A stretch of DNA of 64,000 nt from NCBI GenBank assembly GCA_000004985.1, contig GG738896.1. One strand, given 5' to 3'. Every line of letters starts with the position of its first letter. Position 1 is the first letter of the stretch. Both the position numbers and the translations under genes were made by a program. Source of the stretch: Naegleria gruberi. Its lineage: Eukaryota. Of the stretch, positions 1,003 through 35,000 are shown in pieces. The notes beneath the pieces are model-generated. The model was not told the DNA's origin and ran no database searches. It saw only the letters and a list, made by a program, of their open reading frames with translations.

Positions 1003-1353
1003 ATGCGTAAATTCCTTCCGAACCTCAAAGTTGATAGTCCATTCAAGAAGAAGGCTACACAAGTACCAGCCCGAAGTACAGACAGCCTTGATGATGATGA
1101 TGATAGATCGGAACGTTCCAATCGATCCAACCGATCAACAGTTTCAACTCCAAAGAAATTGGTTGATAGTTCTCCATTAGTTGGTTCTGAGAAATCATCT
1201 AGTCTTCCATTTACATCAGTTTCTGAGGTAAAACGATCGATACAACAGGAAAAGGATTTGTATGTCTTTATATTAGCAGATAACTTATTAATTATATTAA
1301 AGATTAATTGTTTTGGGATATGGAGTGGAATATATAACTCCTACAAAGACTAG
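1003..1353 (+). CDS. hypothetical Ser/Asp-rich protein; possibly the 5' exon(s) of one gene with 1542..2009
   Basis: ORF starts with ATG. A candidate GTAAAA donor sits after codon GAG at 1227. Downstream segments are coding-like in other frames. Confidence 0.25.
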   Translation: MRKFLPNLKVDSPFKKKATQVPARSTDSLDDDDDRSERSNRSNRSTVSTPKKLVDSSPLVGSEKSSSLPFTSVSEVKRSIQQEKDLYVFILADNLLIILKINCFGIWSGIYNSYKD

Positions 1354-2179: not shown

Positions 2180-3457
2180 TTACTTTGAATTAAGATATGG
2201 AAGCTTCATAGCTCTGTGATGTAAATGAAGTCTCTTTAAGCTCTTATCTGGAACTACGTGTGTCAAACTTTCTGGCACACCTTCACCATACTTGTAATCA
2301 CCTAAAATTGGAGCTCCCAAAGCACTAGCACAATGAACTCTAAGTTGATGTTTTCTTCCTGTCACTGGATAGAGAGCTACCCAAGCCAATTTATCAGTCA
2401 TGTGGTCGATGGTCTTGTATTCAGATACAGAGATTTTTGACGAGTCTGTCTTATTATCCACAGGAACTACTTTTTCTACTCCATTTGCATCTTTTTGAAT
2501 GTCGATTACCATCTTAATTCTTCCAGTAGTTGGTGTTGGAACGCCAACAGTGACAGCCCAATAACACTTCTTAAGTGGAACAGTTGATTCCTGTAACCAT
2601 TGTTGCATTCTTATGGCACCAGCTCTATTTCTAGCAACAATCAACACACCAGTTGTATCTCTATCCAATCTGTGAACAAGTTTTGGTCGCACATTGAATC
2701 CGTCCAATCCAGTCAGTGCATCCAAAAGTGCATCGATGTGGAATGTTTGATTACTTCCTCCCTGAACACAAATACCATATGGCTTGTTAAGTGCAATAAT
2801 TTCATCATTCTTGAAGAGGATCCAACTTCTAATTTCCTCAATTTGTTCCTGTGTTAATTCGAGTTTCATTTTACCTCCATTCTTACTATAAATTGGATTT
2901 CCCAAAGTTTCTGATGAGATGGTATCCATTTCATCATCTCTGTCTATTTTATCAGTTTCTCTTTGTGCCTTATTGAACTGTTCTCTTTTTCCTGTTATAT
3001 GCTCGTCAATTTCCTGTCTCTTTTCACTATCAATGAAATCTTTTGGAATTTTAATAATGTCTCCCTTAAAAACTCGTTCATTATTTTCCTTAACAGCAAT
3101 TCCATTCTTGAAAAGTTGCTTCTTTCTCGTAATTTTCTGTATCAGACCAAAATTAATGGCAAGAGTTTTTGTTAGGAATTTATCCAATCTCATATCATCG
3201 TGTTCCTGTGAAACTGTTAATGTGACATATTTCTTTTTTAAGGAGCTAGAATTGACCTCGTTTTTGGAAGTAGATTTATCTTGATTGGATTCAACAATTG
3301 GCATAGAAGAGGCCTGGTGATCAGGTTTCACACTTGTTGTTGGAGTATTTTCAAGTAATGTTGAATCTTCTTGTTGTTTATCATTTCCTATTTTACAATT
3401 CAAATAAATTTCATCAAATGAACAAAAAGTTTGTAATTTATATGCCGATAATATCAA
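2180..3457 (-). CDS. RluA-family pseudouridine synthase (RPUSD-like)
   Basis: 425-aa ORF with the catalytic motif KLVHRLDRDTTGVLIVARN (HRLD..TSG signature). The C-terminal region is conserved (HQLRVHCASALGAPILGDYKYG). Confidence 0.75.
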   Translation of the reverse strand: MILSAYKLQTFCSFDEIYLNCKIGNDKQQEDSTLLENTPTTSVKPDHQASSMPIVESNQDKSTSKNEVNSSSLKKKYVTLTVSQEHDDMRLDKFLTKTLAINFGLIQKITRKKQLFKNGIAVKENNERVFKGDIIKIPKDFIDSEKRQEIDEHITGKREQFNKAQRETDKIDRDDEMDTISSETLGNPIYSKNGGKMKLELTQEQIEEIRSWILFKNDEIIALNKPYGICVQGGSNQTFHIDALLDALTGLDGFNVRPKLVHRLDRDTTGVLIVARNRAGAIRMQQWLQESTVPLKKCYWAVTVGVPTPTTGRIKMVIDIQKDANGVEKVVPVDNKTDSSKISVSEYKTIDHMTDKLAWVALYPVTGRKHQLRVHCASALGAPILGDYKYGEGVPESLTHVVPDKSLKRLHLHHRAMKLPYLNSK

Positions 3458-3505: not shown

Positions 3506-3895
3506 TTACACACCCTTTCCGAATGGTTTTCCTCTAGTAGCAGCTTCCTTCTTTTGTTCTTCAAAAAGTTGTTGGTCATATTCATCTTGGAACAATGGAG
3601 CTTCATTTCCCCACTGTTGCATCATTTCATCTCCAAAATCTTCACTCAAATCAGTTTCAGCCTCGGATTGAAGATATTCCCACAAGAATTGACGAAGTAA
3701 ATCTTCATATTGTCTAGAATCCATCCCCGATGCAAATTGTTGAATATCCTTATTATTATTATTCATTTGCGTAACATTTTGAGAGAAACATCTAATGATG
3801 GAATATTGTTGTTGGTTTGCTGCTGATGAAGCAACTTTTGAAATCAAAGGCTTTGAGAGTTTGGAAATGTTTTTGAGCATTTTTTTTATTTTCAA
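3506..3895 (-). CDS. hypothetical small acidic protein
   Basis: 129-aa ORF with no recognisable domain. Confidence 0.25.
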   Translation of the reverse strand: MKIKKMLKNISKLSKPLISKVASSAANQQQYSIIRCFSQNVTQMNNNNKDIQQFASGMDSRQYEDLLRQFLWEYLQSEAETDLSEDFGDEMMQQWGNEAPLFQDEYDQQLFEEQKKEAATRGKPFGKGV

Positions 3896-5949: not shown

Positions 5950-6212
5950 ATCATATTGTTTTTTGAATGAATAGTGAAATAATTAATTCATTAATCAATC
6001 GAATTTACATTTTGAAACAAAGTCCCCAATAGGAAGCAATATTCATATTTTGTTCTTTCAGATAGGTACCAAACGAACCAATCAATAGTTTTGATCATTG
6101 TAACTTATGAATTTTCAATAAATAACATTGTAAATTTGCTCTCAGTCCCCACCAGGTTTTAAGCTTGCAGCCACGCAACATTGTAATTTCCGTTTAAAAA
6201 AAATACAACAAA

Positions 6213-14121: not shown

Positions 14122-16464
14122 TTATCTCTTTTCCTTTACAAAGAATCTCAATAAGAGACCAGCTAAAACAATAAAGAAAACAGCAAAGCTTGCAGTGAAA
14201 ATGATATCCGCATAGAATCTTTCGTGGTCCATTCCCAATTCTTTCAGGAAAAAGTCACCATCACCTGGGAAGCTTGGGAAACCTTTTGGATCAATAACGA
14301 TTGGGAATCCGTGCAATTCATTGATGAGAAGGGCTTCATAGGCATAACTAAAGTATGAAAAGTATTTAATCCATGAGAGGTAGACTGGAAGTGAATCAGT
14401 ATTCAACAAGAATCCAGCAAACAACATATTTCCAAGAATTAACAAAATTGAAATCAAGTTAGCAGAAGCAACACTATTAGCAATTGTACCAATACAAATA
14501 CAGAGAGCTCCACTTGCTAAATTGAATAAAATTAAAATGAAAATAAACCAAAAGAAGTGTGAAGTGATTTCTCTCAAACCAATCATCCACTAATAATATT
14601 TTAGATAATTATTTCTATTGTCAAATAATCAATATTGAAAAATACTTACATAAGCAATAGATCCCATAATAATTGGTGGAATGACACGGAGTGGAATTAA
14701 ATCAAAGAAAGTCTTTGAGAAAAAGTATGAAATTGAAAGATAGTATCCATTTGCTCTTTCTCTCACATAAATTGTACGTTCTGTAATAAATAATTCCAAG
14801 CTAGACATGGCAGCAAAGTTCAACAAAGCACACATGAAGAAAATACTACCCATTCTGTTTTGACAAGCTTGGATATTGTTACTTTGCTGGAAGTAAATGG
14901 CACCAAGTAAAAGACCCATGATAATAGCACTCAAATAGTGAGCTGGCATAAGGTAGAAATTTCTGTAAAAGTTACGGAATGATCTCTTAGATAAAATGTA
15001 AAGTTGCGTATAGAACGAGGTGGCATACTCTTGAACCTTCTTGGTGTAAATATTATCTTCTGTCTTTACCAAGAGATTTTGTGATTCTTGATTTTCAGAT
15101 CCATAACCAGATTGTTTGAAAATTGGTTGTTGGTAAGATAAAGATTGATTATTTTGATTAATAGAAGTTCCTTGAGTCTCATTTTCTGACATTTCTGACA
15201 TGACATCTAATAAAAAGTCAGCAGGATTGTATTGAGATGGACAGTCATGACCAAGTTTTGACAAATAATCCAATGATCCTTCAGCACTTCCACTATAGAA
15301 TATTTTACCATCCTTCATTAAGAGTAAATTATCAAATTGTTGGAAAATATTAGAACGAGGTTGATGGATAGAGAATACAATAGTTCTGTTATGTTTAGTG
15401 GCCAGGTCGCAAATAGTCTTGATGGTTGAGACTGCGTGATATGAATCCAATCCCTTAAAAAGTTTGTCATTCATTAATAAAAGTAAAATTACTAACACTT
15501 GTAGGTTCATCCAAGAAGAGAATTTGTGGTGCAATGACTAATTCACAAGCAATACTGACACGACGTTTTTCGCCTCCAGAAATACCTTAAAAAGTTTGTT
15601 ATTCATGAAATAAAAGTAAAATTACTTACCTCTTGTCATGGCATCACCAATCTTTCTATCACGAATATGTGAAATTCCAAGCTCTTCCATAACAGACTCA
15701 ACACGTCTCTTCTTTTCCGTATATGGGACAGTATCAGGTAAACGAAGCTCCGCACTAAACATGATTGATTCAAAAACTGTCAAGGTACCCATTAAATGAT
15801 CATCTGATTGAGATACATAACCAGCAACTCTCTTATATTGGTTATAGTCAATTGGTTTGTTATTAACCAATAATTCTCCAAAAACATCTCCAGATTTAGA
15901 TCTACCAGCAATAATATCCAATAATGATGTTTTACCAGCTCCAGAAGGACCCATAATAGCAGTAACAGTTCCCGGTTTAAAGGTGTGACTCAATCCATGA
16001 AGAAGTGTAATTCTATTCTTGCTCTTGAGATGGAGAGCCCTTTCTCTTTCCTCCTCCTTTTCTTCCTTTGCAATATCTTCCTCATTGACTCCACTAACTT
16101 CCTGGAGAGAATTGATTTTCTTAGCAGTAGTTCTGATAATATAGGTCAAGTTACGAATTTCCAACTTGGCTCCAAATTCATTATTTCCTGTCTTCATCAT
16201 ATCCTCATATTCATGTTTAACCTTTCTAGTTTGAAGTTTAGAATAAATAATACTGAAAATTAATACAATCATGATAGCAACAAAAATTACTGAACCAACA
16301 GCTCCAGCAACAATTTTAGGTAAATCATTTTGTTTTGGTGGTTGAGGTGCAGGAACGTATACATCAACACACTCAGCAGCATGATCACAAGTTGATTGAA
16401 TAACACCAGGGAAGTTTTCATGTTGAACTATTAGAAAAATATTAACAGGTAAATATTTTAACAT
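14122..16464 (-). CDS. ABCG (White-type) half-transporter core, NBD-TMD; at least 4 exons in this span
   Basis: Walker [15 protein letters not shown] signature [13 protein letters not shown] lies in the 15497..15585 exon. Walker B/D-loop FLDEPTSGLDS. C-terminal 6-TM ABCG-type domain. Introns: 15586..15629, 15454..15496 and about 14587..14646 (GTAAGT...TATTAG). Confidence 0.75.
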
Positions 16465-17372
16465 TGGAATTGAAACTTACTTGAACAAGACTTGGTTTCG
16501 TTATTACACTGTACATTTGCATAACCAGTCATGTGTTCTAATATATACAATACAAACTGGTTATAACATTTTGGAGAAATCATTGAACATGCACAGCCAG
16601 TAGTATATCCACATTTGTATAATACTTCTCCTTTTTCTGGAATTGATAAGACACAATCGTGGAATGTACAATAAAAAGTTTCAGCAAGAGAAGTATCAGA
16701 CTTGTCAAATGATCTGAAATAACAATTTCCACCAGCTGTCTTATTTTCCATTCCATTACAGTCAATTGTGAAATAATTTCCCATGAGAGGTATCATTCTT
16801 TCCGAAGTAACTTCACAACTATAAACCTTTTCTTTCTGTGGAATGTATGATTTATCACAAAAAGCAGCCGAATTGTTCAATCGTTGTTGACAAACGTAAT
16901 CATTACTACACATTCTACAATCCAATCCTTCCCATCCAGGTTGACAAGAACAAACTGGAGATTTATCGTCATCACTACTCGTACTAAATAAATTTCTTCT
17001 TGTGTTCGAATCATCATAAACTTTATCTGTCAATGATTTTCCATTTACACAGTCAATCAAAGAACAATTTCTAATTCCCATGGATAAATCATTCTTGAAA
17101 CCAGGCAAACAAACACATGTTGTATTATCTGTCGAACAATATCCAGCATTCATACATCTCGCATCACTATCACAAATTGTCCAATCGTATTGTTGTTGTC
17201 CAACAATTAGACTACCACTACTCATCATTATGATCACTAGGAAAATAAATAATACTAAACCACTACCACCGAATTTGAATGAATTATTGTTTGGGTTCTT
17301 CCGAATCCTATGTAGACCATGAGAGATCCCACCATTGGAAGAAGATAATGGGTTGGATAGCGATATCTGCAT
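16458..17372 (-). CDS. signal peptide plus EGF-like Cys-rich ectodomain; probable 5' exon of the ABCG gene
   Basis: 304-aa ORF with an N-terminal hydrophobic signal (LVLFIFLVIIMMSSGSLIVG) and EGF-like C-x-C patterns (CVCLPGF, CSCQPGWEGLDCRMC). A GTAAGT donor after TCAA at about 16470 and a TAATAG acceptor at about 16420 join in phase to ...[35 protein letters not shown]. Confidence 0.5.
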   Translation of the reverse strand: MQISLSNPLSSSNGGISHGLHRIRKNPNNNSFKFGGSGLVLFIFLVIIMMSSGSLIVGQQQYDWTICDSDARCMNAGYCSTDNTTCVCLPGFKNDLSMGIRNCSLIDCVNGKSLTDKVYDDSNTRRNLFSTSSDDDKSPVCSCQPGWEGLDCRMCSNDYVCQQRLNNSAAFCDKSYIPQKEKVYSCEVTSERMIPLMGNYFTIDCNGMENKTAGGNCYFRSFDKSDTSLAETFYCTFHDCVLSIPEKGEVLYKCGYTTGCACSMISPKCYNQFVLYILEHMTGYANVQCNNETKSCSSKFQFQC

Positions 17373-17656
17373 TTTTTTAATTTTTTTGAAAAGATTTGAA
17401 AAATCCTTTGTTCCTTGTCGAACCGTTTTTATTCTTTTTGCAAAGTTCTAATGGGTAAACAATGTTGATGTATCAAGGAGGTAAGGATTCGATGGTTGGT
17501 TTTTATTAAGGAATTTTTTAAAGGAAATGTTGGAACAGGACACAAAGTGGAATTAAAGTGGAACGGTAAAGAAAATCTCCAGTTGAACCTTCACAAAGAT
17601 ATAAAGTTTACAAAGGTATGATGAAATTTACAATTTTTTTATTAACAGTTTTTTTT

Positions 17657-19057
17657 TTAAAAATTGAAAGAAACATCCGAATAGGATCCATTCATAAGAT
17701 TCTTAAGGAAGTTTTCAACTCTAACATTTGGAATTCTGATAAAGAATGCAGAATCAGAGAATGGTGAAGAACATACTTTCCATCCTTGAGTTGTTAAATA
17801 TTTAAAGTCATCAAAGCATTCCATTCTTTGAATAACTCTGAAGGACTCATCATCTCTGTCGAACCAATTCTCTTCATCTTCACTATCAGCATACTTGCTA
17901 TGCTCAATATGACCTAGGGCACCATAGCTATTAGCTCCAGCTCCATAAACATCTCCATTGTGAGTTGTAAAGTAAGCAACATCTGAACCACATTCTATGG
18001 ATGTAATTAAAACATTCTTCGAGTCGAAATAGGTAATCTTAATTGGTCTACAACTGGTCATATTTTCAGAATCGTCTAAATGTGGAGTTGTTGAAAAATT
18101 GAAATATCCTGTTACGAATACTTCACCTGATGCATTTAAAAACATTGTGAAATTTTCTCCACATTTTACAGAGACAATTTCTTGATCTGTGAATGGTTCT
18201 ATAAGAACAGGTCCAGCATGTAGTTCAGTTGAACCCAATCCTAGTTGACCAAGTAAATTATTACCACATCCATACAATGATCCATCTGTCTTCTTAAAAA
18301 TAGTATGTGAAGATCCGCAATATATATCCTCAATATTATTCATAGTTGGAAGCATTAGTGGCACAGTTATCACATCTTTGGCATTATAGGTTCCTAGTTT
18401 ACCATAATTATTTAATCCTGAAGCAAATACATAATTTGCAGAAGTAATAAAGAATGTACACGATTCACCACAAACAATTTTTCTAATAACTTCACCATTA
18501 TTAATAGTGATCCTTGAAAGTTGATCGTACATTCTCTCCTTAGGTAGACCCAACTCAAAACATTTGTTTGACCCGAGTCCATAAATTTTACCCTTATTTG
18601 TTAATACAAATAAATGCTCACTTCCAAGAGTTATCTTATCTATAAAATCCTCTGAATCTTTCCAAACAAATGGTAACTTGGTTGGAGCAGTTGTTTCAGG
18701 AAATAATTCATCTGGTTGTTGTTTCTTCTTTTTCTTTTTCAAATTTTGAGTTGATCCACAAACAAACAAGTGTTTTCTACTACTTGTCAAGAAAACTGAA
18801 TATCCACGTGTATCATTACTAACACAATAAACGTGTTCTACCTTTTCATAACCCTCTTCTAATCCATTCATTCTCAGTGTTGGATTTAAATATTTTGGAT
18901 AGTATATTGATTGTGCATTTTGATTGCTAAACCCTAATTGATGACAATGATTTCTTCCCATAGAAAGAACCAATGTTTTGGAAAATTCTTTTTTTCTTTG
19001 TTCCGATCGTGTGGTTGCTGTATTACTGGCAGAAGCAGCAGAATGTGTTTGAGACAT
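17657..19057 (-). CDS. RCC1-repeat (regulator of chromosome condensation-like) beta-propeller protein
   Basis: 466-aa ORF with at least 5 RCC1-type blades (GRNHCHQLGF, GSNKCFELGL, GLNNYGKLGT, GNNLLGQLGLG, GANSYGALGH). No signal peptide. Confidence 0.75.
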   Translation of the reverse strand: MSQTHSAASASNTATTRSEQRKKEFSKTLVLSMGRNHCHQLGFSNQNAQSIYYPKYLNPTLRMNGLEEGYEKVEHVYCVSNDTRGYSVFLTSSRKHLFVCGSTQNLKKKKKKQQPDELFPETTAPTKLPFVWKDSEDFIDKITLGSEHLFVLTNKGKIYGLGSNKCFELGLPKERMYDQLSRITINNGEVIRKIVCGESCTFFITSANYVFASGLNNYGKLGTYNAKDVITVPLMLPTMNNIEDIYCGSSHTIFKKTDGSLYGCGNNLLGQLGLGSTELHAGPVLIEPFTDQEIVSVKCGENFTMFLNASGEVFVTGYFNFSTTPHLDDSENMTSCRPIKITYFDSKNVLITSIECGSDVAYFTTHNGDVYGAGANSYGALGHIEHSKYADSEDEENWFDRDDESFRVIQRMECFDDFKYLTTQGWKVCSSPFSDSAFFIRIPNVRVENFLKNLMNGSYSDVSFNF

Positions 19058-19603
19058 TTTTTCAAATCAAGAAGGAAAATCCGAGAAACTGATGCAGATT
19101 AAAAATCGGAATGTACAACTCCACAATCAAATTGAATCTATTTTTATCTATTACTGATAATTATTTTTAGATTTTTAGAAACACAAGGAGGAAACTGTTG
19201 TTTACAACTCCTGTGAAATATCTGATCAAAATTCCATACAGTATTCATTGTAACACCTCGTACATTGAAAGATATGTTAAAATAAATTTAATATTCTTAC
19301 TTTTGAAATAGTGTTTGTTAGTAATGTGTTATCATGTAACTATTTCATTTCTAAAAGGATATGGGTAAATGAAGTTGATGGAACAGCAACAAATCATTTC
19401 AAGTCACTTTACAATTGCCTTTCCCAGACCTTCCGGTTGAAAGATTTTTGGTATTATTATTGCAAAACGATTGGTCAGCAAACCCTTCTTCCAATTTATT
19501 GTGGAGTTTCTACTTTCCGTTTCTTTCTTGCACCTTCTAAATTGAAAGTAATGAAAACTTCAGCACCAACATTGACATTTGTCTTTCTATTAGTAAAAAA
19601 ACC

Positions 19604-19819
19604 ATGTCATCGTTATTTGAGGGCTTTCTCCTCAACAACACAACAAGGAGGAAACTGTTGTCATCAACAACATCTCTTCTCTTCTTCCTACTCTTGTGCA
19701 TTACATTCTTCTTTTCAACAACGTGCCTTGTTGATGGTGAAAGAATAGATTTTTTTCCATCTACTATAGTAAGCTATGGTGACCAATCTTTTTGCTCTTC
19801 CATGTCCAGTAATTCCTAT
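19604..19819 (+). CDS. putative exon 1 (signal-peptide exon) of the giant receptor gene
   Basis: ATG at 19604. Encodes MSSLFEGFLLNNTTRRKLLSSTTSLLFFLLLCITFFFSTTCLVDGE.... Ends at a perfect GTAAGT donor at 19820. A phase-0 acceptor (TATAG at 20010..20014) re-enters the long ORF frame, which is open from 20015. Confidence 0.45.
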
Positions 19820-20014
19820 GTAAGTTTTAAAGAAGGATTTTCTTGTTATTAATCGGACTTTATGGTTTTTCCCTCCAAAATTTATGATTGTCTTGACAAT
19901 GAATTTGAAAAAATGTGTTGATATTAATTTTATTTGGCTTGCTATCATTGGATTTTCTCTGATCATGTGAACAATATGATGATAAATAATAATATTACTT
20001 TCGGAATGGTATAG

Positions 20015-23000
20015 AAATCATTTAAAAATCCAGTTTCATATCCAACACCTGGATGGCAATTATTATATTTCCAAGGATTTAATTGCCCAAAGAATGGAGT
20101 TCCTGAAGGAATTAGTGATCGTAGTTATGGACAATTGCGTGTTGGATATAATCACATTATTGCTTTTCAAGTGAAAAGTAATAATGGAACACAAAAATTA
20201 AATATTGTAGGAAAAGGTGATAATACAGTTGGTCAATTAGCTATTGATAGATATATTTCTGGTGGAGTCAGATATTTTGCCAATATTACATTTGAAATTA
20301 ACTGGGGAGAGATGGTTAGATTAGTACAAATTGAAGATTTAATAACATCAAGAACTATTGCAAATAATCAAGATGTTGCTAAACTTCAAACTTATGATGC
20401 TTGGGATTCTAATCTTTATTTTGATAATATTAAGGGACACTATTTCCCTGATAATATTATTATTCAAGATATTAATACTTGTTATTTAAATACTTTTATA
20501 ATTTTAAAGAATCAAGAAATTTATGGAACTGGTTCAAATATTTACAAAAGTTTAAGTTTATCAAACGAAAATAGCAAAAGTAACTCTCCTATAAGATTAA
20601 CAATTTTGGAAAATTTTTTAAAATCACAAAGTGATTGGATTGATCAACTTTATTGTGGTTATTCATCTGTTTTTATTAAAACAAAAGCTAATAGAATTAT
20701 TGTATTTGGTAGAAATGATGTAAATCAATTAGGTCTTGGATCTGAATTTAGAGCAAATTCAATTACTCCAACAATTCATCCATTTTTAACATATTATTCA
20801 CAAAATATTGCAAATCTTGATACTATTTCATTTGGTTTAAATTTTACTTTAATTTCATTCAAAGATGGTTCAGTTTATTGTGCTGGTTTAAATAATCACC
20901 ATCAATGTGGTCTTGGTATTAATGAATATACAATTTCAAATTTTGTTCAAGTACCAATACCAGAAAAGATTACAAAAATATCAACAACAGCATATGCATC
21001 ATTTTTTGGTATTGAAACTGGTGAAATATTATCTTCAGGATGGAATTTAGGTTTTATTTTAGGACAAAATATTACTGATGAAAATTATGTTTCATCTACT
21101 CCAGTTAAAATTGAAAATTTAATTTCTCCAAATGATTATCAACTTTCAAAAGGTTTTCAATTATTTCATATAACTTATCAAAATGCAACATCAACTATGG
21201 CATGGGGATCAAATCAATTTTATAGTTCTGGTATACTTTATCAGGGTACTGGAACAGCTGCTTATCCAACTATTTTAGCATTGGGCAATGTGGAACGTGC
21301 TGTTTTAGAATCTATTGCAAATCCATCTGAATGTATTTTAGTTGGTGGTCATGCTGCTGCTAATGGTTGTTCCAATAGTTTATTACAAAGAATTAATTTA
21401 AAAACAGGATTTAATACTACATTTGGTGAATTTCGTTCATATTGCAGTAATTTTGGTACTTTTAATTATTCTACAGAAGTTTGTTCATGTGATGAAAAAC
21501 ATTATGGATATTCATGTCATTTAATCAAACCAGAATTTTTAGGAAATTGTAACCAATCAAGTTTAGAAAATTTTGCTATTGCTCCAAATACATGTTATTG
21601 TGGTGGAGAAGGTTTTTATGGAACATCTTGTGAAAATAAGGCACCTCCTAGATCTGTTTACAGTTTTACTAGATCTTTAAATATTCAAAAATTTACTCTA
21701 AAAAATAAGATGTTTGATTTTGGTTATTTAATAAGTGGTCAATCACATACATTTTTAAAATCTCAATTGAATAATAATAGAGTTTATGTATTTGGTAATG
21801 GATTGAATACAAATGATAAATATGGAATTGGTTTGGCTAGTAATAATATGATAAGTGATACTATTCAAATTTCAACATTATTTGAAAGATTATCAAAGAA
21901 ATTAACTTCTTCAATAAGAAATATTTATCCAATGAAAATTCAATCAGTTGCATTATTTAGTAATGGAGATATTTATAAGACTTTAAATAATTCAGATTTT
22001 GAAATTATTGCAAGTAATGTTAAATATTTAACATGTTCAGATATTACATGTTTTTTTATTACTAATGATAAGAATGTTTATGGTATTTTTGATAATCAAT
22101 ATAATCAACTTGGTTTAACTGATTTTGCAACAAGACAAAAAGTTTATGAATCTCAACCTGTTTTAGTATCACTTTTAAATAATAATTATCATAAGGAGAT
22201 TGTTAATATTTATCCTTCAAATTATTTTACATTATTTGTTAATCAATTTGGTAATTTATTTGGTATTGGTAAAAATACAGAATATCAATTAGGTATTGGA
22301 CATAATTTAAATATTGATAAGTTTATTATTCCATTAATAATTGAAAAACCTGTTTCACATGTTATTGTTACAGAATCTATTACATATTTTAAAGAATTAA
22401 ATTCTGTTTGGAAAACAATGGGTAAAGATATTTTAAATATTGCTCCAATTTCTCAATATTTAATTTATCCAACAGTAATAACATCTTTACAAGAACAAGA
22501 AAATATTTATAGAGCTAAAGGTGATATTATTATTACTCAAACAACAACTAAATTTAGACAATTAACACTTAATCAAGACCTTTCATATGGTCAAGAAAAA
22601 ATTATTGATGTTAATATTATGGGAGATGATATTATTTTAGTTACAATTCCAAGTAATTTTAATTCTATACTTTGTTATAATGGTTATTTAGATATTACTG
22701 GTACTTCATGCATTTGTGATAAAGGTTTTAGAGGAATTGATTGTAATTCTTATTTATGTGATAGAGTAACATGTAATTCATGTATTGGACCAAATATATG
22801 TTCTAAAAATCAATCTACAACAACAAATGAATTGAGATTATTCTCAAAAAATTATGGAATGATACAATCAAAGTTTAATGTTAAACATCATACTATTGGT
22901 GATAATTTTGCTATATTTATAGATTATGATGGTGAAACTAAATTTATTGGTGATAATTTTTATGGTGAATTAGGAATGGGTGGTTATTCTTCAATTAGTA

Positions 23001-26000
23001 TTAGTACCTCAAATTTACAACTTTTAACAAATAATATTTTACTTTTACCAATTTATTTAGCTAATGAAAATGTTAAATCAATTACATCTGGCAATAATTT
23101 TATTATTGTTTTAACAGAATCAGGTAATTTATTCTCTGTTGGTGATAATAGATTTGGTCAATTAGGTCAAAATGATACTATTAGTAGATATTTTTTAACT
23201 AAAATAGAAAGTACAATAACTTTTACAAGTGTAACTTGTAATTCTTTTCATTGTATTGCCTTAGGATCAAACAACAAATATTATGGTTGGGGAGATAACA
23301 CATTTGGTCAATTATGTTTAGATTCAACAACTAAAAAGGTTGTTTACACACCTTCACAAATTATATTTGATGTTATTATAGATGTTGTATCTACTTCAAT
23401 TATGTCAATTGGTCAAAACTCTTCAATATTTTATAGTAATAGTGGAGATGTGATTGCTTGTGGTAAAATAACAGTACCATCAAATTATGCTGATAAATCA
23501 GTAAGACAAAGAGTTTTACCAAATTTCAATATTGATTTACAAGCTATGGAACAAATACCAAGAAAATTCTATACCGATTTATGTTTAAAAAATTCTAATG
23601 AAGAATATTACTGTTTAGGTGAAAACAAATTTGGTACTCTAGGTTTTGGTCATGCTTTACCTCTTTATGGAATTTTTTTATCAAAACATTTTGGTGTTGA
23701 TGGAGGATTATTTTTCCATACTCACACTAATAAGATTAATTTCTATTATTCTAAAAACAAAATTTTAAATTATTTTGGTAATGGTGATTTATTGAATGAT
23801 ATCAACAATATGAATCCAGCAAGACAAACAAATGTTTTTCAATCAATTGGTAAATTTAGTTTCATAACATCAAATGAGAAATTTGGTTATATAATTACAA
23901 ATACTAGCAATTGTTTTAATAGAGGATATTTTTCTAATGGAATTTGTACTTGTAATAATATTAAATATTTAGGTGATGAATGTCAAACAAATACTAACAT
24001 TCCACAAGGTACAACTTCTCAATTCCAAATAATTGATACTTTAGGTAATAATTTTAATTTTACTAATAAGTTTGGAAGTATGTCAAAAATTGAAACATTT
24101 GGTAATTTACCATTTGGTTTTAATAATACTAGAAATAATTTAAGAGTTGTTAGTACCTTTAATTTGGCATTAAATCAATCCACTTCTCAACTTGCACTCA
24201 TTTTTGCTATTGATAATTATGCTAATTTAAACGTTGACATTCAATTTCCAAATAGTGGGAAAATTAGTAAACTTCAAACAAGATTGGAGGAAGGATCTGA
24301 TTACATTTATCATACAATTACTACTGATAATATAGATACTAATGCAATTATTCAAGTAACATATACAACAAATAATTCAGTAATTTTAGATAGTGATATG
24401 AAGAACCAATTTCTTAAAGTTTATACAAGAAATGAAAAAAATAATATTATTCCTATTGGATTGAAATCTAGCTCTGAATTATTATCTGAAGTACTTGCAA
24501 GGTTGAATTTCCTTTTTTCTATTAATGGTCCACATACTGCAGAAATTTCCTCTATTGAAGAATTTCCATGTGATCTAGATGGTAATAATAATGTGATAGG
24601 TCTCAGATTAGATGGAAATTTTTTCAATTATACATTTTATCCAATTCTAAAAGATGAATCTTTCCGTACTTTAAAGAACTTTTACAGCTCAAAAATTTCA
24701 TCAATTAGATATCCTATTCATGAAACATTTAATTTTGCAGAAAGTGATATTAGTCTCATTAATTTATCTAATAATAATAATCTTGAACAATCTGCAGGTT
24801 ATTATGATTTATCACCAGTTAAAAGAACAAATATTTTAATTAATGTTTCAAAATCAAAGATTTGTGATATTCCATTTGCTGATTTATTTATTAATCCTTC
24901 TAAATATAATTTTACAAATACTAATATGTATTGTATGAAACCAATTTTTGATAATTCTTGGTGTAAACCATTAAGTTTTAGAGAAAGTACTTTATACTTG
25001 ACTCAATTTTTTGTTTCTACAAAATTAAGTATTCCACTTGCACTTTGTGACTCATGTTCTATTTTAAATTGTTTTGATTTTTTAACTCAAAATACTTCTA
25101 GATTATCCTATTATTTTGTTTACCCAGATAATAATAAGATTATTTCTAATAATTTTAATATATTTGAAACAAGAAAGGATGTAAATGTTGATTTATTATT
25201 CAATGAATTTAATGAAAATAATTTCCTTAATTTTGATTATATTAATATGGGTATTATTTATAAATATGATTCTCCTATTGGAATACAAGAATTAAAAGGA
25301 ACTATCAAATTACAATATTTGAAATATTTACAAAGTTTCAATTTTACACCTATTGTACTTGCTAGAAATAGTGATAATATTGTTACAATTAAAAGTGAAA
25401 ATATGAAAGATTTCATAAAATATAATCAAGTTTATTGTAAAACAAGAATTAGTGAAGAAATAATTACTTTGGATGACAATGATAAATCAACTTCCTATTG
25501 TAATATTAGAACTGGTATTGAATATAATCAAAATATAACAGTTCAATTAATGGCTTACCCTATATCAGGAAATAATCCTTTTAAAATTGGAGAATTTAAT
25601 GTTTATGTTTTAAATATAACACTTATTCCAAATATTATCAATAAGTATTCTACAAAATATCCACAATTAATATTTATTAATTCTGATTTTACAACAGGAA
25701 GCTTTTTATCAAATTCTAAATTAGAATTTATGGAAAATGGTGAAACTGTTTATAAGATTGATCAACTAAAAATTAGTTATTTCAATACTTTATCCATTAC
25801 TGCAGATATTTATAAACAAAATCTTGACATGTATTTAGATAATGTAAATTTAGGATATTTTACTTCTCAAATTGTTTATAAACAAGTCAATTTAGAAAAA
25901 ATTATTCCATCCTTAAGTTTTAATACTGAAGAGATGCCTACAATTTATTTAGATAGAGAAATTTATTCAAATATTCATTCAAATATTCAGTATAGATGTT

Positions 26001-29000
26001 TAGATACTTTAACAAATACTTCATATTCTGCTCAATACTTAAATTCTAGAATAATATGTAATATTAATAATTTACCTACAAATAATGTAAAATTATTAGA
26101 TTTAATTGTTCAAATAAGAATTTATTCATTTAATGATAATGAATGGTTTACATATAGTAGTAATAGTGTTAAGTTTTATCATTTAATTTCTAATATGAAT
26201 ATTTCTTTAGCAGAAGGATCACAAACCTTTTCAAAATGTCATTATTTATCTTCTAGTACAACAGGTTTCACTCCAAGAATTAAATTAAATGAAATTGTTT
26301 TACCTGAAAGTGAAACTTATAGATTTTCAATATGCCATTATAATAGGTTAAATGAAATTGTTACCTATAGATCTAATTATTATAGAGATAATTTATTTGA
26401 AGCATCAGGATTTACTTTATATCTTAAAAGTGGTTATTCTAATATTTATTTATGTGCTGACTCAATGATTGTATCAAAACCAGTTGTAGTTTTTGTTATT
26501 AATCAAACAGATTATGATTCCAAACCAATTTTTGGTTTTATTGGTTCTGATATTTGGTCTGGTTATATTTTCCATCATCAACCACTTTATTCTGATTCTC
26601 TCTTCAATTTAACCTATTCTTGTGCCTTATTTGGTGATGTTCAAAATTATACTGTTTATTCAACAGATTTAATTACAAACAAAATTGATAATTATTATGT
26701 AACAAGATGTATTTTCACTGGTTTAAATAATATTATCAAACAAGAGGCAGGTTTTTATTTTTCATTACTTGCAAAGAGAGGATCAGAAACTGTTCAATTA
26801 CCAGCTACTTTTATTAATTTCATTTATGGACCAAAACCTACAAATTATTCTACTCCATTTATTTCTCATATTCCATATTCTGGTTATATTTCAACAACTT
26901 TATTAACACAAGATCAGGATAGAGATTTATTTGTTTCTAAAAATCAAAATGGATTTTTTAGATTAACTCTCCCAATTGATTGTTTGTTATTTAAAGTTGG
27001 TGGTACTTATCCTATTGCATCTGCACCACTTGATACAACATCATCAACTCTAAAATGTGATTTAACTAAATATACAGTTACAAGCAGTGAACCATTCGAA
27101 ATATCATTAGGTTCACTTGTTACAGAATATTCTTATTTTGTAGAATTTACATCAAGAACTGTACATTTCACATATTTGAATAAGATAGAATTTAACTTTG
27201 AAGGCTATCCAATTTTAGAAACTGGAAAATCTATTCTTCTAAATTATTATACTAACAAACTTCCTCAATACAAACAAACCCAATTGAATGTTACTATGTC
27301 TGCATTAGGACAATACCCCATTATCAAGTCATGTGATTTTGAACTTACAGGATCTTGTATAGTAGATTATAATTTAACAATTCCAATTACTCCAGTTTTA
27401 CAAACTTACATACTTCAATTTTCATTTATTATTAATGAATTTTTATTGAAACAAACATTGAACATTGAAAATACATTGTTCAATAACAGATTTAATGTAA
27501 TGTACTATTCACCATTCCTCTTTGATTTTAAAACTGATTCAAGCATTTACAATTTCAAGTTACAAATTGATAATGGATTAAATCCTGATTTCAATTTTGA
27601 TCTTGATACTGATGGTATTAGAAGAAGCATTTTTTATGGTTTGAATAATGATAGTATAACAGAAGTTACTTGCTCTAGAATTAGTAATTATAGTACTAGT
27701 ATAGCATCTAATTTAGAAACAAGAATTGTATCAACATTTAAAGGAATTACATTTTCTGTTGATAAGAAACCATCAACTATTTACCTTAGAGAACTTTACA
27801 CTACACCAAATATTGTCTCTCAATCAATTCAAAAAACTATTAATATTACTCTTACTACAGATATTGCTATTCAAAAACCTCTAAAGAAGTATTATATTTC
27901 TTTATTAGATAATAAGTATGAATGTAGTATTGAATCAACATCTTTGATTTGTCCTGTTTTAATTACATATATTGGTAATCCTTTCTACAAGGAAGTTCTT
28001 AAAATTTTAGATGGTGATAATGTTGTAACAAGGATTGGTTTACCATTTATCCTATTCAAACCAATTTCTATTCGTGAAGTTAAACCAACACTTCTACTTC
28101 AAGATAATAACTCTGTTAATACTACAGTTTTAATGGAGCAAACAGTTTTTGAAGATTTAGGAACAGAATTTATATTTTCTTGTTCCATCGAAGATGGTAA
28201 CTTCTCAGCTATTGTTGGTGATTCTAACTCTGTTAGATGTAATTTCAATAACTTGAATACTGGAAGAAAGAGTGTAAAAATTTATCTTTCCTCTAATAAT
28301 CAATACAGATCCATCAAGGAATTATTATTAACTGATATTAATCCAGCAAAAGATTTTGAAGTTATTAAGAATCCAACCATAGCTCTTGATAATTCTATTG
28401 AGCAAAAAACTTTATTCTATACTTCTGAAACCTTTTCATTAACAACTCTTAATATTCTAGTTACAAATACTGAATTCACTTTGAATAATATCTTGTATAA
28501 CATTTCTACTGAAATTGGTTTTTATGGAAAAAACAGCTTTGTTGAAAGTACTACTTATTTGGGAAAATTTGATACATCATACAAATTCCAAGTATCATTT
28601 TATGCTTCAAATAACTATGAAGGATTTGTTCCTCTGAGATTAACAAAAGTTTTATCAGGAACTACTAAAGAATCTAGAGCTCTTACTTCTGATGATTACA
28701 TTTTAACAAAGATATCTGATTTGGTTCTAACTTGTGTAACAAAGGTAACTTTATCAAAGAGTGTTCCAGCATTTGGTGTTGAATCTAATTTACCAAGATT
28801 AGTTCAATTATATTCAAACTTTAACTTTTTAAAATTTATTCCTGATTCTAATCTTTTACAAGATGGAAAGGTTAATTTTAAGTGTGTTTATGAATATTTA
28901 CCAAAATCTAATAAGGCAATTAGTAGCACTACTAGAATTTATAATAACGAAGCATTCGAATGTAATATGACAACACCAGATGTTGGTCAAGTTCAAATTG

Positions 29001-32000
29001 ATCTTTATGTTGAAAAAGATGGACATTCATTATCTCTTAATATTAATTCATGGAATTATATTATTTATGATGGTTTATTCTTACAACCTTCTTATGGTTT
29101 GAGAACTATTGAAAATTCAAGACTGGTAAATCCGTTCAAGATTCAAAAATACTCTGATTTGTCTGGTATTAACTTGAATCAATTTACAAAGTTTAATGGT
29201 AAAATTACTGAACCTGATGTTTCCTTTACTTGTGAAAAGGAATTAAGTTCAGATGGTATCTATCCATTATTGAACTGTACTATTCCTGTTTTACCATCTA
29301 CAAATATTATGTCTTTCAAACAGTATGAATTAAGACTTTACACAAATCCAAGTATGCAACTAATTTCAAATTTCTCACTAGGTTGGCTTCCAACAAGTTC
29401 TCTCTATATTAGTAATATTAATCCAAAAATTATTCAAAAATCTACTAGTAAGACTGATATGAAAACAATTTATGTAGATATCTCGGGAGATAGTAATGTT
29501 ATTTCAAGAACCTTACCTGAAGGTAACTTTGCTATTTATACAAGAAGTGCAGGTGTTGCCCTTTTACAATCTGCTAGACCACCTTATGTTGCTCAACCTG
29601 CATCTATTGCTATTCAAACTTCTAATTTTGAAGAAACTGTAACATTACAATATGTGAACTATAACTTACTTACACCTGTTATTGATATTCCAAAACCAGA
29701 CCTTGTCGATTTTATGAAACTCACTGTGAATGATGTTGAATTGAATAGTATTCAATATTCATCCGACAGTATTAAAGGTTCTAAGGCAAGTGGTGCAACT
29801 ATCTTTTTCACTGTAAGCAAGAATACTGCCACACTATTCATGTTAAATAATGGTGGTTATAATGGTTCTATCAAATGTGTTCAAGATCCAATCACTAGTA
29901 ATAGTGCAACATTTGTGTCTGAATCAACTGATACACTCAAGTTCAAATGCGTTTTAGCAAAGACAAGCTCAATTACAAATTCCTTTATTCTTTCTAAAGT
30001 TGAAATTTACTATAATAATCCAATGGCAGAGAATGGAAATATGAAGGTTTCATCTAGTGCTTTAGATTTTATTTGGTTACCTTCTACTTTACCAATAGAA
30101 CAACCTGTACCATTTGCATTTATCTCCAGAGTTGGTTCTTTTGATATTTCACTTTCAGATAAGAAGGTATTTATTTCCTCTGATAATTTTGTTTGTTATT
30201 TGGCTGATTCTACAAGTACCAATGTAGTGAAAATCAAAGCCATTTATAATCCATCAGGAACTCTCACATGTCCATTCAGTTTTAGCTATTCTATATCAAC
30301 AGTATTTAAAATTTCTATTTACTTTAGTAATGGTCCAAGTGATGTTCTTTTAACAACAACAAGAGATGTAACCTTTATCAATGCACCTTTGGAAATTTCA
30401 TACATTGACCCATTCATTACTTATCACTTACCAGCACTTACTGGTAGTACAACAGATATCAATTACAAGGTCAGCAAATTGAGTTTTATTCCTCAAGGTT
30501 TATCTTGTACTTTTAGAGAAGTTACATCAACAATACCAAGTATTGGTCAAGTTAGAAAAATAACACAAGCTCAAATTCAAGACGGTTTATTTGTTTGTCC
30601 TTTCTTGATTGATCAAACATTCTCATCTTATAATTTACTTACCAAATTAGTGATAGATTTAGGAAGTAATCTTTTAGACATTTCTAGCAATGAGCTTGAA
30701 TTGATTCTTTACAAAAAGAAGCTGACATGGAATATCAACTCATATTTGACAGCATCAAATTTGAATACTAGATATGAACTACGTAATTATGAAATTCCAC
30801 ATTCTTCAAGTTATAGTCTTCAACAATCTGTTGTTGCTACTCCTTATTTAAGATCTCAAAAAATACAAAACTTGAAAACAACAACATTAGATTGTATTGG
30901 AGCTGATCCAGCTAGTTGTACATTTGTTGGTATTGAACCAATGGTTAACAAAATACCTTCATACATGACCACTGCTATTGAATTTATCAATGTTGAAAAT
31001 CAAAGAAAATCTTACATTATTGCTAATGACTTGACATTGTTCCTTAAAAAGTCTTCATTCAATGTTTCTCATATTTCTCCATATATTGCAGACTACAGAC
31101 AAAGTCATGCATCTAATCAAAATTTCCTCTTTACCAGTGCTAGTTTAAATGCTGAGGACTTTGATATTACATGTCAATTCGATAACAAAAAGACAAATAT
31201 GACAAGAAATCAATTTTGTGTTGTTAAACCACCAACTTTACCAAATGGATACCCAAAAACTGGTATTCAAAATGTCACTTTAACTTGGAATGGTATTGAT
31301 TTATATTCTAGAAGTTATCCAATAGATTTCATAGAAGCCTATCAAGTTAATAATTTGATAACTTTTTATTCATATAGATCTAATATTACATTGATTGATA
31401 ATCCTTATGTTCCTCTACCTTTCAGTGGAGATTTTTCTGGCTATACTTTTTCAATTGGACTTTTTGAAAAGAATAGATTAATAGGTGAAGCAACTTGTAA
31501 ACAACTATTTGCTAATAATGCCCAATTAGAATGTGTAAAGGGACCTTTTAGTTATTCAACATCTTATCCAGTTACTTCTATTGTGAAATTATTGATTAAC
31601 GCTCAATCTGCTTTCCAGATGAAAGGAGAAATTGTGTTATATTCTGCTCCTACTATTCAAAGTCTCAGTACTAATTATTTCAGAATTAACCAAATTTATA
31701 CTATGGAAGTCTATGGATCTGTATTCTATCAAAAGGATACGCCAACCCTTGAAATATATTCCAATACTACTTTCAATTCATATCCTACCATGGTTGTTGA
31801 TTCCAATACTATTCGCATTCAAAACATTGGCTTCAATGACCTACAAGAAACTCTAAGAAAATCCAGATTGAAATTTAGTTCAGGTGCCTATTTAGATCTA
31901 CCAGATATTTCTATTTATAAAGGAGTGAAAGAAGATTTCTCGTTGCAATCCATCAATTCAGAAGCATATGATAATGGTGTTATTACAGCAACCACAACTA

Positions 32001-35000
32001 GATCCATTAGCATTGATCTTAAGCTCATCTCAAATACTTTCCAAAACAAACCTCAATCATGCTTGGTAAAGTATGAAGATGGTGTTTTGTCCATCGTTCA
32101 AACATGCTCTGTTACCTATGAAAGTGGTAGCGTTACCCCCGTAGTACACATAACAACTCCATTAATGTGGTATTATGACATTGTTTTCCCAAGAATAATC
32201 TCTTACTCATTCTCATTGGATGGAGGTGCTTTTTACTATACCCATGCAAATTTCAAAATTAAGATGGTGGACGATAGTGAGAATTTCATTATTCGAACTA
32301 TTTATGATCAAAATATTGTTACATTTTCCAATGTTCCTTATTCTATTTTATCTGGTGTCTCACTTTCCTTCATCAAAATTGGAACAAATGGTACAAATTT
32401 GCAAGAACTTGTTTTTACAAAATCTTGTAAAGCAAGCTATTGTAATCTTGATTATGGGCATATAATATTTGAAAATTTAAGACCATTTGAATACTTTGAA
32501 TTTGATCGTATTAGAATCAACAAGGGAGCTTCTAGTAAGATCTTTGCAATTTCAAAGAACCTTCTTATTTTCAATCCTAATAATACTTTATCCTCAATTC
32601 CTTCCGTTTCAATTTCACATTCCAAAGTTCAATTAGGAGCTAAAACAAGTGTAACAATAATTCTTCCAGCTAGTTTTAGTAGTGATCTTTCCAAGATTAG
32701 CACTGTTACTGTGATTTTCAAAGCTGATGGTTCTACCAGTACCCCTTCAACCATATCCAAAGGTTGGACCTCAAAATATTCCTTCATTATTGAAATGGAT
32801 TCTCTACCACCGTGGGATTTGCAAATAGCTGCTATTGCTTTCCAAAATATTAATATTAACGTTATTGCCTCTCCAACAATTACTTTAATCCCTTCATTTG
32901 ACTTTTCTATTATTAATCAGTACCAAAAAGCCAAAGCATCTACAAGATCACAAACTAATCTCAGAGTTACATTTAATAGTGCAATTACTACTCAACAAGG
33001 AATAATTCCTTCAATGAAAATTTCTAATTCAAACACTAATTTATTCAAGTCCTACACTACAAATATTCAAATTGATGGAAATACCAGAACAACAAATGCT
33101 GTACAATTTACTGAATTGACAGTGACAGCTCCAGCAGCTTCATCAATTCTTACTGTTGATAAATCCCTGGTTAGATTCCCTACAAAATTTAGTATTGGCT
33201 TTGCATTCCTGGAAAACCAATATGTTATGAAGGAAATCCTTACCTATGATGATTCTATTGCTGATCCTCCAATTATAGTTAGTGTAAATCCACAGGAAGT
33301 TCCTCTAATTGATCAACCAGTTACTTTGGATATCAAAGCTTCTTCAATAGACTCACAGTCAACTCAATGTATCTTTAGGGCTAGCAAGGCATCCAGTGTT
33401 AATAACACAATAATTGTAAATGCCAATTTCATTGATCAGTATTCCATTGGTTGTACATTTGTTCCTTCTCAAATTGTTACCGAATTGGGTATTTCTAGTA
33501 CTTTAGAAATGGACATGACATTGAGATCTAATTTGGATGAAAGCAAAGAAGTTATCAATATTCCAATCTACAGACAACTTAATATTGATTCTTTCACACC
33601 TAAACAAGGTATTACAACAGGTGAATTTGAAACCACATTCATTGGAAGCTTCCCTATTCATCCTAGAGAAGAGTACTTTTTAACTCAGGGAAGAATGAAA
33701 TTCAGAGCCAAGTTCGGTATCAGAGAATCAACTGACTGCTCAAGAATAAGCTCAACAACTGTAAAATGCAAAGGTGTTAGTAACCCTATCTCTGAAGTAG
33801 ATATTTCCCTATCCAGAAATTCTGTTGATTTTGTGAAAGCATCTGAAAAGTTTGTTTATTATGGATGTGGACCTGGATATGAACAATCTAGTTTCAATGA
33901 ACTTTGTAAACCATGTAAGATTGGTTATTCAAAGAACTTTACTGGTGGTCCTTGTGTTGCATGTGATAGAGGTTACTATGCAAGTCAACCAGGTTCTTTA
34001 GAATGCACTAAATGTCCTTCCTTGCAAACTACATTAGATACTGGCTCTACAAGCATTGACTATTGTGGATGTCCTTCACAAACATATTATTATAATATTT
34101 ACAAGAATTCCTGTGTAACATGTCCAAAAGGTGCTGATTGTCCATCATTTAATACTACTTACCCTATTGCCAAGACTGGTTACTGGCATTCAAATGCAAC
34201 TGGTTATAGTCCTTACAATTTCTATGAGTGCATTCCTTCAACTTCTTGTAATGCAGGTTTGTTTGGAAACTGCACCGATGGTTATACTGGTTTCGTTTGT
34301 GGTTTGTGTGAAGATGGTTTTTATAGAAGTTCCAGATCATGTAGTAGATGTTCAAATCTTGCTCCTCTCTATTTGACACTTTTGATAGGTGGTGTAGCTG
34401 TTATTGCATTGATATTCTTCTTCTTTTCATCAATCAAGGTGCATCACATTTCATCATTGAGTATTGCACTCTTCTTCTTCCAAGTGAATAGTATGTGGAC
34501 AAAGTTTGATTTGAACCTTCCAGAAGAAATCTCTGGACTTTTCACTGCAAGTTCTGCAAGTACTTTCAACTTTGATTTTATTCAGTTCCAATGTGTTTTT
34601 CCAATTGGTTTTGTACCTCAATGGATTTTGAAAATGTTAATTCCTGTAATGCTTTTAATCTTATTCGTAGTGTTGTATTTAATGGGCGAATTGAGAAATA
34701 TTATTGCCAAGTTTGCTGGACCTAAAATTCCATGGAAGAAGTGGGATATTACCGATTTGTACAATGAGTTTATCAAGAGACAAGAAATTGAATCAGATCC
34801 AAAGCTCACTAAGATGCAAAAGTTAAAACATTCTCTCACTGGTATAATGTTCTCAGCTAGAACTGCAATCTACAAATCCCAACACAAAATTATTTGGACT
34901 CTCACCACCTATTTACCAAGAAGTGAGATGAAGAAGTTTTTGAATAATTGTATTCACTCATTCATTACTTTCCTTTCATTGGCCTACATGTATATTATTC

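Follow-up and report, generated by a model that had tools for sequence, protein, structure and literature searches.

Two very short introns in a single ABCG-type half-transporter gene of Naegleria gruberi are near-identical copies of one another, and we interpret them as paralogous spliceosomal introns. Both were located on the minus strand of the window, i.e., the whole stretch of 64,000 nucleotides (64 kb) of contig GG738896.1 that was analyzed, and they are referred to below as intron A and intron B. In all probability they reflect a gain, specific to this lineage, that took place by the copying of one intron sequence. As to how the copy was made, we lean towards same-gene intron duplication (local intron propagation), most likely via RNA-mediated transposition in cis.

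The host gene extends over 14122..17372 on the minus strand, with a coding sequence of 3051 nt (1016 aa) that is assembled from the exons 17372-16481, 16427-15630, 15585-15497, 15453-14650 and 14589-14122 and interrupted by four introns. On the 1016-aa product, Pfam places ABC_tran at 440-593 (1e-31) and ABC2_membrane at 742-953 (3e-43), with a Cys-rich N-terminal region and a TM segment upstream of the NBD and the TMD. An NBD located N-terminal to an ABC-2 type membrane domain is the arrangement of an ABCG half-transporter, and the best homologues of the product are ABCG proteins.

Intron B (15586..15629, minus strand, 44 nt, phase 1) is located at codon G564, directly before the ABC signature ISGGE, and reads GTAAGTAATTTTACTTTTATTTCATGAATAACAAACTTTTTAAG on the minus strand from 15629 to 15586; a putative branch site, AAUAAC, lies approximately 14 nt from its 3' AAG. 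Intron A (15454..15496, minus strand, 43 nt, phase 0) is located between S593 and G594, that is, between Walker B (DEPTS) and the D-loop (GLD), and reads GTTAGTAATTTTACTTTTATTAATGAATGACAAACTTTTTAAG on the minus strand from 15496 to 15454. Both introns of the original prediction, which had described two near-identical 43/44-nt introns in an ABCG gene, were thus recovered at their minus-strand positions and with the sequences quoted. The prediction was also right that they lie close together, but not in the figure of 90 nt, as the intervening exon 3 (15585..15497, minus strand) is 89 nt long. Exon 3 encodes (G) plus 29 residues, forms the sole sequence between the copies, and is single-copy and collinear with the orthologues. 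The sequences of the other introns of the gene, intron 1 (16428..16480, minus strand, 53 nt, phase 1) and intron 4 (14590..14649, minus strand, 60 nt, phase 0), are unrelated to those of A and B.

For A as well as for B, the interval given is the sole GT..AG choice that restores the reading frame. The predicted junctions after splicing are AGAG/GTATT for B and CAAGT/GGATT for A. The resulting product, in which ...DAMTRG is followed by the 29 residues of exon 3 and then by GLDSYHAV..., is gap-free and collinear with the orthologues. The protein collection searched has no exact match to the 1016-aa spliced product, and the public gene model for the ABCG locus, which lies between NAEGRDRAFT_52089 and NAEGRDRAFT_72255, may differ from it. 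When the ORF that reads through intron A was used in a protein search, just relatives of approximately 50% identity were retrieved, and no close strain. The intronless HSP90 and RCC1-like neighbours of the gene encode proteins identical to N. gruberi NEG-M XP_002672583 and XP_002672653.

Aligned with MAFFT, A and B are identical in 40 of 44 columns (91%), in good agreement with the earlier estimate of about 90% along the full length, and differ by three substitutions and a one-base indel in a T-run. The substitutions fall in GTA/TAGT, in the UA/GAC branch motif and in the spacer, positions that are tolerated by the splice signals. In the 64-kb window, searches with either half of the intron, allowing at most 3 mismatches, identified full copies at A and B only. 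Similarly, an nhmmer profile of the copies found just the two loci (E 2e-11 and 7e-10, with the next match in the window at E=15), and apart from the A-B pair the 64 kb contain no genuine direct repeat.

The likeness ends at the GT and AG boundaries. Beyond these, the 40-nt flanks align at background level, and local alignment of the 30-nt flanks, assessed against random exon pairs of the same gene, gave p=0.62 upstream and p=0.95 downstream, consistent with the claim that the flanking exons are unrelated. A segmental duplication is ruled out, as the flanking exons are not duplicated, and so is an intron formed by AGGT tandem duplication, as the intron has no similarity to the neighbouring exons. 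The sole inverted match within the copies is a near-palindrome, AGTAATTTTACT, present in both. Folding of the two introns gave MFE values of -1.6 and -3.7 kcal/mol (z-scores +0.5 and -0.4), which do not represent a significant fold, so that a structured RNA can be dismissed, and the introns have no match in Rfam at E<=1.

For comparison, we used eight other plausible short introns in the window, recognized by a donor motif, open reading frames on both sides, a stop within the frame and a low GC content. Pairwise identity of these introns, both among themselves and with A or B, does not exceed 69%. In addition, 5000 shuffles of the interior of A, with the splice-site ends kept, aligned to B with a mean identity of 60% (sd 4.6, maximum 75%), compared to the 91% observed. 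The sequence is therefore not shared by the other introns of the window, as had been noted before, and the concern that short introns might resemble each other to this extent through consensus is not borne out by the window's other short introns.

The orthologues compared with N. gruberi comprise N. lovaniensis (P0001, L001), a Naegleria-like ENA metagenome contig (P0002, L002), and two further sequences, L035 (GC 28%, with the same N-terminal region) and L036 (GC 49%). At 56% and 53% protein identity, respectively, L035 and L036 are outgroups to all three Naegleria sequences, which are 72.2-75.4% identical to each other (73.0% for gruberi-lovaniensis, 72.2% for gruberi-L002 and 75.4% for lovaniensis-L002). 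In tblastn and nucleotide alignments, both intron sites are empty in four out of four orthologues, with clean gaps of 44 and 43 nt. The comparison of presence and absence proposed along with the prediction thus finds both introns missing from N. lovaniensis, L002, L035 and L036 alike, and distant orthologues carrying both introns with unrelated sequences, which would have pointed to an older origin, were not encountered. Neither was any copy of the intron sequence in the sequences of the relatives compared.

Three other intron positions in this gene are each occupied in two of the three Naegleria sequences, so that old introns are detectable as shared, whereas A and B occur in N. gruberi only. 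The position at aa 297 (intron 1) is common to gruberi and lovaniensis and not found in L002, the position at aa 861 is common to gruberi and L002 (where the intron is 37 nt long) with N. lovaniensis lacking it, and the position at aa 955 is common to lovaniensis and L002. The orthologous intron 1 of gruberi and lovaniensis has no recognizable sequence similarity left, which indicates that the similarity between A and B is far younger than the split of these species. On the orthologous sequences available, A and B are thereby shown to be lineage-specific gains in the N. gruberi lineage. This agrees with the recent gain by duplication or transposition that had been put forward, since the introns are absent from four orthologues and, unlike the orthologous intron 1, are still 91% alike.

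Sequences from a second strain bear on the age of the introns and on their splicing. The ENA contig L003 (sample ERZ929261, run ERR1078381) is N. gruberi-like and 98.3% identical to window positions 19915..15537. It carries intron B with a single substitution, an A at window position 15607 where NEG-M has a C, and intron A has the same base at the corresponding position. The C of NEG-M is therefore derived, and the ancestral B differed from A by two substitutions and the length of the T-run only. L003 stops 49 nt past intron B, and two contigs from the same run, L037 and L038, start 22 nt downstream of A; the reads of this run represent at least two N. gruberi-like haplotypes. Compared to NEG-M, and downstream of both introns, L037 shows 8 synonymous and 0 non-synonymous differences and L038 shows 6 and 1, respectively (14 to 1 when pooled); between the strains and NEG-M there are 2 changes in intron 4.

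The ratio of 14:1 shows purifying selection on the reading frame, which depends on the removal of both introns. In-frame stops occur in each of the two, within 2 and 9 codons, and given these stops and the purifying selection both would have to be spliced. We regard this as strong indirect evidence that A and B are both genuinely spliced introns, and the ABCG host gene is, judging from its sequence, functional. Silent divergence between the strains is approximately 2.5-3%, compared to approximately 7% between A and B, which suggests that the duplication is older than the strain split by a small factor, with very small counts on either side of this comparison. As A and B have diverged by more than the strains have at silent sites, the L003 strain is predicted to carry intron A too.

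Same-gene intron duplication is characterized by near-identity over the whole length of the intron, by flanking exons that are not duplicated, and by the gain of at least one of the two positions. The A/B pair shows identity at 40/44 positions from end to end, its exons are one-to-one collinear with those of the orthologues, and both positions are empty in all four of them. In a likely sequence of events, an intron of approximately 44 nt would have been established at one of the two sites after the split from the N. lovaniensis and L002 lineages, and would then have been copied exactly from GT to AG, in the same orientation, to the second site 89 nt off in the same gene; alternatively, both sites may have been given the same source sequence. 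The copying itself could have started with the spliceosome inserting the excised intron, by reverse splicing, close by in a transcript of its own gene. The reverse-spliced RNA would then have been reverse-transcribed, and a short conversion tract would have moved the new intron into the genomic copy of the gene, such that the source intron was not erased.

Precise boundaries, the same strand, the same transcript and a distance of 89 nt are what reverse splicing in cis predicts. Any explanation also has to accommodate that the neighbouring introns and the source intron were kept and that no exon sequence was transferred. Intron transposition in cis accounts directly for the precision, the orientation, the shared gene, the distance, the retained introns and the lack of exon transfer, though keeping intron B would require a conversion tract on the 5' side of less than 89 nt, or an unspliced recipient transcript. 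We infer both the RNA-mediated mechanism and which way the copying went, from B to A or from A to B. An imprecise copy made at the level of DNA within the highly conserved NBD would have been removed by selection, and precise boundaries alone are therefore no proof of an RNA route; as a review notes, an in vivo demonstration of spliceosomal introns being reverse-spliced and then reverse-transcribed has yet to be given. In its most specific form, in which the pair would be a nearly pristine record of transposition in cis, with a 44-nt intron that re-entered the transcript of its own gene by reverse splicing at a distance of 89 nt, downstream or upstream, and was recently fixed, the proposal is a tentative one.

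A different source for the two copies would be a low-copy mobile intron family (an 'introner-like' element or 'low-copy intron'), with A and B both stemming from an unseen third copy that perhaps hops locally. As both sites are gains, the first intron must have come from somewhere, and in fungi the 302 low-copy introns in unrelated genes outnumber the 82 same-gene duplications (PMC3609843). The public gene model is possibly different or missing, in which case the introns would have been hidden from annotation-based screens. We nevertheless consider such a family unlikely, as no third copy exists in the 64 kb, with the profile search included, and NEG-M is listed without an introner family (Gozashti et al., 2022; PMC9860276). 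Two scans of JGI metagenomes did not yield a related copy either: a pattern combining the two halves of the intron had 0 matches, and the 31 matches to the 20-nt 5' half were all unrelated in the 3' half and are thus ascribed to chance.

The hallmarks of a transposon are also lacking. There are no TIRs and no informative TSD, and the only direct repeat that flanks an intron is the AG/GT consensus, at site B only (the slash marks the junction). A and B (43-44 nt) rank with the shortest introns of the window and, in contrast to fungal ILEs, lack a stable fold. Moreover, two independent insertions 89 nt apart among approximately 15,000 genes would be very unlikely without a mechanism acting in cis. 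An introner family comprises at least four copies in unrelated genes, compared to 2 copies in the 64-kb window, and the term 'introner-like', understood as a multi-copy mobile family, is not supported for a pair with neither a TIR or informative TSD nor a stable fold.

As the main rival, the copy could also have been made locally at the level of DNA, by template switching during replication or by DSB repair with the nearby intron (or its cDNA) as filler, after which only a precisely spliceable product would have survived selection. The distance of 133 nt from start to start fits local template switching, and intron gains through DSB repair have been documented in Daphnia and other taxa, as reviewed. 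Both sites are preceded by the motif ACAAG (ACAAGAG/GT and ACAAGT/GT), which could serve as microhomology or offer the two sites a similar context in the 5' exon. At site A this motif is older than the intron, since L002 has ACAAGT/GG without an intron; the presence of ACAAGT at the empty site A of L002 likewise leads us to reject ACAAG as co-transferred exon sequence. However, ACAAG lies 1-2 nt away from the true junctions, where microhomology amounts to at most 1 nt, and a template switch primed on ACAAG would give a frameshifted exon junction. The match itself is statistically marginal (approximately p=0.015, post hoc), and the alignment of the flanks is not significant. As the exact extent from GT to AG would additionally need chance, followed by selection, we regard a copy at the level of DNA as doubtful.

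It is highly improbable that both introns are old and were either lost in all other lineages or kept alike by functional constraint or gene conversion. Introns are often lost in this gene family, with single-lineage losses at the three other positions, but at least 3-4 independent losses would be needed at each of the two sites, with both outgroups included. Truly orthologous introns keep no similarity at such divergence, gene conversion requires homology that is already present, and there is no fold, Rfam match or conservation across species to supply a constraint. The same findings speak against the 'conserved intronic functional element' that had been suggested for the pair, as the sequence occurs in no orthologue beyond the N. 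gruberi lineage, is not significantly structured and has no counterpart in Rfam. Finally, it can hardly be maintained that the likeness is an artefact of the assembly or follows from the strong splice-site and branch-site consensus and the AT-richness of very short introns: the short introns of Naegleria are AT-rich and often start with GTAAGTA and end with AAG, but identity does not go beyond 69% in other pairs or 75% in shuffles, compared to 91% for A and B, and the copies differ at 4 positions, lie in distinct conserved exon contexts and, in the case of B, are confirmed in an independent assembly (L003).

Most introns have been in place for too long to keep a trace of their source, which leaves the question of how new spliceosomal introns arise largely unanswered. 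A review lists 14 unambiguous events of 'intron transposition', all from two taxa. Several properties make the A/B pair useful in this context: copies that are 91% identical, sites that are empty in four orthologues, an invariant exon context that runs from the ABC signature to Walker B and the D-loop, and the availability of related strains. Together, these make the pair a dated and polarized case of introns propagating locally in a free-living excavate. Discussion of Naegleria usually centres on the ancient intron positions that it retains. In a full-text search of the literature, introners or intron duplication were not linked with Naegleria beyond incidental mentions, and we found no earlier report of this kind for Heterolobosea and no intron gain with an identified source in Discoba. 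The value of the pair lies in its being unusually clean and testable; it does not reveal a new principle. If transposition in cis is indeed the mechanism, polymorphism for intron A among N. gruberi strains would make this mode of intron gain, the least demonstrated of all, tractable in a natural system.

Among the known systems, the pair fits the rare category of same-gene intron duplication and lacks the features by which introners are defined. Introner families have four or more members, as a rule tens to thousands, spread over unrelated genes, for instance in Micromonas, Aureococcus and Dothideomycetes (PMC9860276). They often have TSDs or TIRs or, in fungal ILEs, a stable structure, none of which is found in A and B. 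Similar to introners, the pair reflects the copying of a pre-existing sequence with its own splice signals, and the similarity of the copies marks a recent gain. The screen of Gozashti et al. (2022) subjected annotated introns to all-against-all BLAST and kept families of at least four (PMC9860276), and its Supplementary Table 4 gives ie=0 for Naegleria_gruberi_strain_NEG-M; such a screen is blind to families of two or three. More generally, events like the one described here escape annotation-based introner screens that require a family to have at least four members.

In the Rogers model, with which the work of Hellsten in 2011 is also said to be connected, an intron is reportedly gained when an exon segment that contains AGGT is duplicated in tandem in the genome. 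The A/B pair resembles this model in its local origin within one gene and in that site B is flanked by AG/GT...AG/GT. Unlike introns that derive from a duplicated exon, A and B are AT-rich and non-exonic, and no exon segment is duplicated. In Oikopleura dioica, new short introns have been found to resemble a nearby intron, with the mechanism described as unknown and reverse splicing proposed (Denoeud et al., 2010, as summarized in bioRxiv 10.1101/051292 and PMC4122922). Intron turnover in Oikopleura is genome-wide and many splice sites are non-canonical, in contrast to N. gruberi with so far a single canonical GT-AG pair.

The closest likeness is to the same-gene duplications of fungi, in which one gene carries near-identical introns at two places (van der Burgt, 2012; Collemare et al., 2013; PMC3609843). 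Known cases of same-gene intron duplication number 82 in 11 fungi (PMC3609843), three in C. elegans and a few in Oikopleura. In approximately half of the fungal cases the flanking exons are not duplicated, and the introns are like ordinary introns in length and folding energy (PMC3609843), and their authors read them as possible intron transposition within the same transcript (PMC3609843). The Naegleria introns correspond to these cases in being a near-identical pair in one gene with exons that are not duplicated. In contrast to the fungal cases, they come from a heterolobosean (Discoba), are far shorter (43-44 nt) and less widely spaced (89 nt), and have both of their positions shown to be lineage-specific by four orthologues.

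Apart from introns A and B, the near-identical 43/44-nt pair in the ABCG gene, three intron positions of this gene show patchy presence or absence among the orthologues of N. gruberi, N. lovaniensis (locus L001) and the Naegleria-like metagenome contig L002. The position at aa 297 is common to N. gruberi and N. lovaniensis, that at aa 861 to N. gruberi and L002, and that at aa 955 to N. lovaniensis and L002 (window 14590-14649 and 16428-16480; L001 ~3740-3797 and 5983-6046; L002 2809-2845 and ~3125-3163). Given this mosaic, the gene undergoes brisk intron turnover within Naegleria. Introns at common positions retain no sequence similarity between species.

Around intron A, two independent assemblies of the metagenome run ERR1078381 break on opposite sides of the intron, with the N. 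gruberi-like contig L003 ending at window 15537 and contigs L037 and L038 starting at window 15432. The latter two differ from each other at several sites, and the sample therefore contains at least two N. gruberi-like haplotypes. The intron A interval may be polymorphic in this sample, or difficult to assemble.

Three unrelated JGI metagenome contigs have in common the sequence G|GTAAGTAATTTTACTTTTATT, after which come a run of T and then AG (L007 12195-12234, L019 1483-1523 and L029 6436-6466). These segments resemble introns, 31-33 nt long, from an AT-rich eukaryote. As their match to introns A and B is limited to the 5' 21 nt, the likeness is probably coincidental.

The exact 1016-aa spliced ABCG product (window 14122-17372, minus strand) is absent from a collection of 15 billion proteins, and none of the homologues found is from N. 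gruberi; two NEG-M proteins adjoining the gene are present in the collection. The public gene model may therefore be lacking here, or may differ from the one used. Elsewhere in the window, one open reading frame spans 5292 codons (20135-36013, plus strand) in the most AT-rich part (GC 23-27%, 20 to 28 kb), with a candidate 195-nt intron at 19820-20014; it is apparently the gene of a giant protein.

The half-transporter carries an unusual N-terminal extension (residues 1-~360, window 16250-17372, minus strand), comprising a signal/TM-like segment, ~250 aa of Cys-rich sequence, whose sole match is a weak one to EGF_Teneurin, and another TM helix preceding the NBD. This extension is also present in N. 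lovaniensis, L002 and the more distant outgroup orthologue L035.

Like introns A and B, other candidate short introns of the window (1260-1302, plus; 40787-40838, minus; 45367-45424, plus) end in AAG as opposed to the usual YAG, which points to tolerance of AAG acceptors in N. gruberi.
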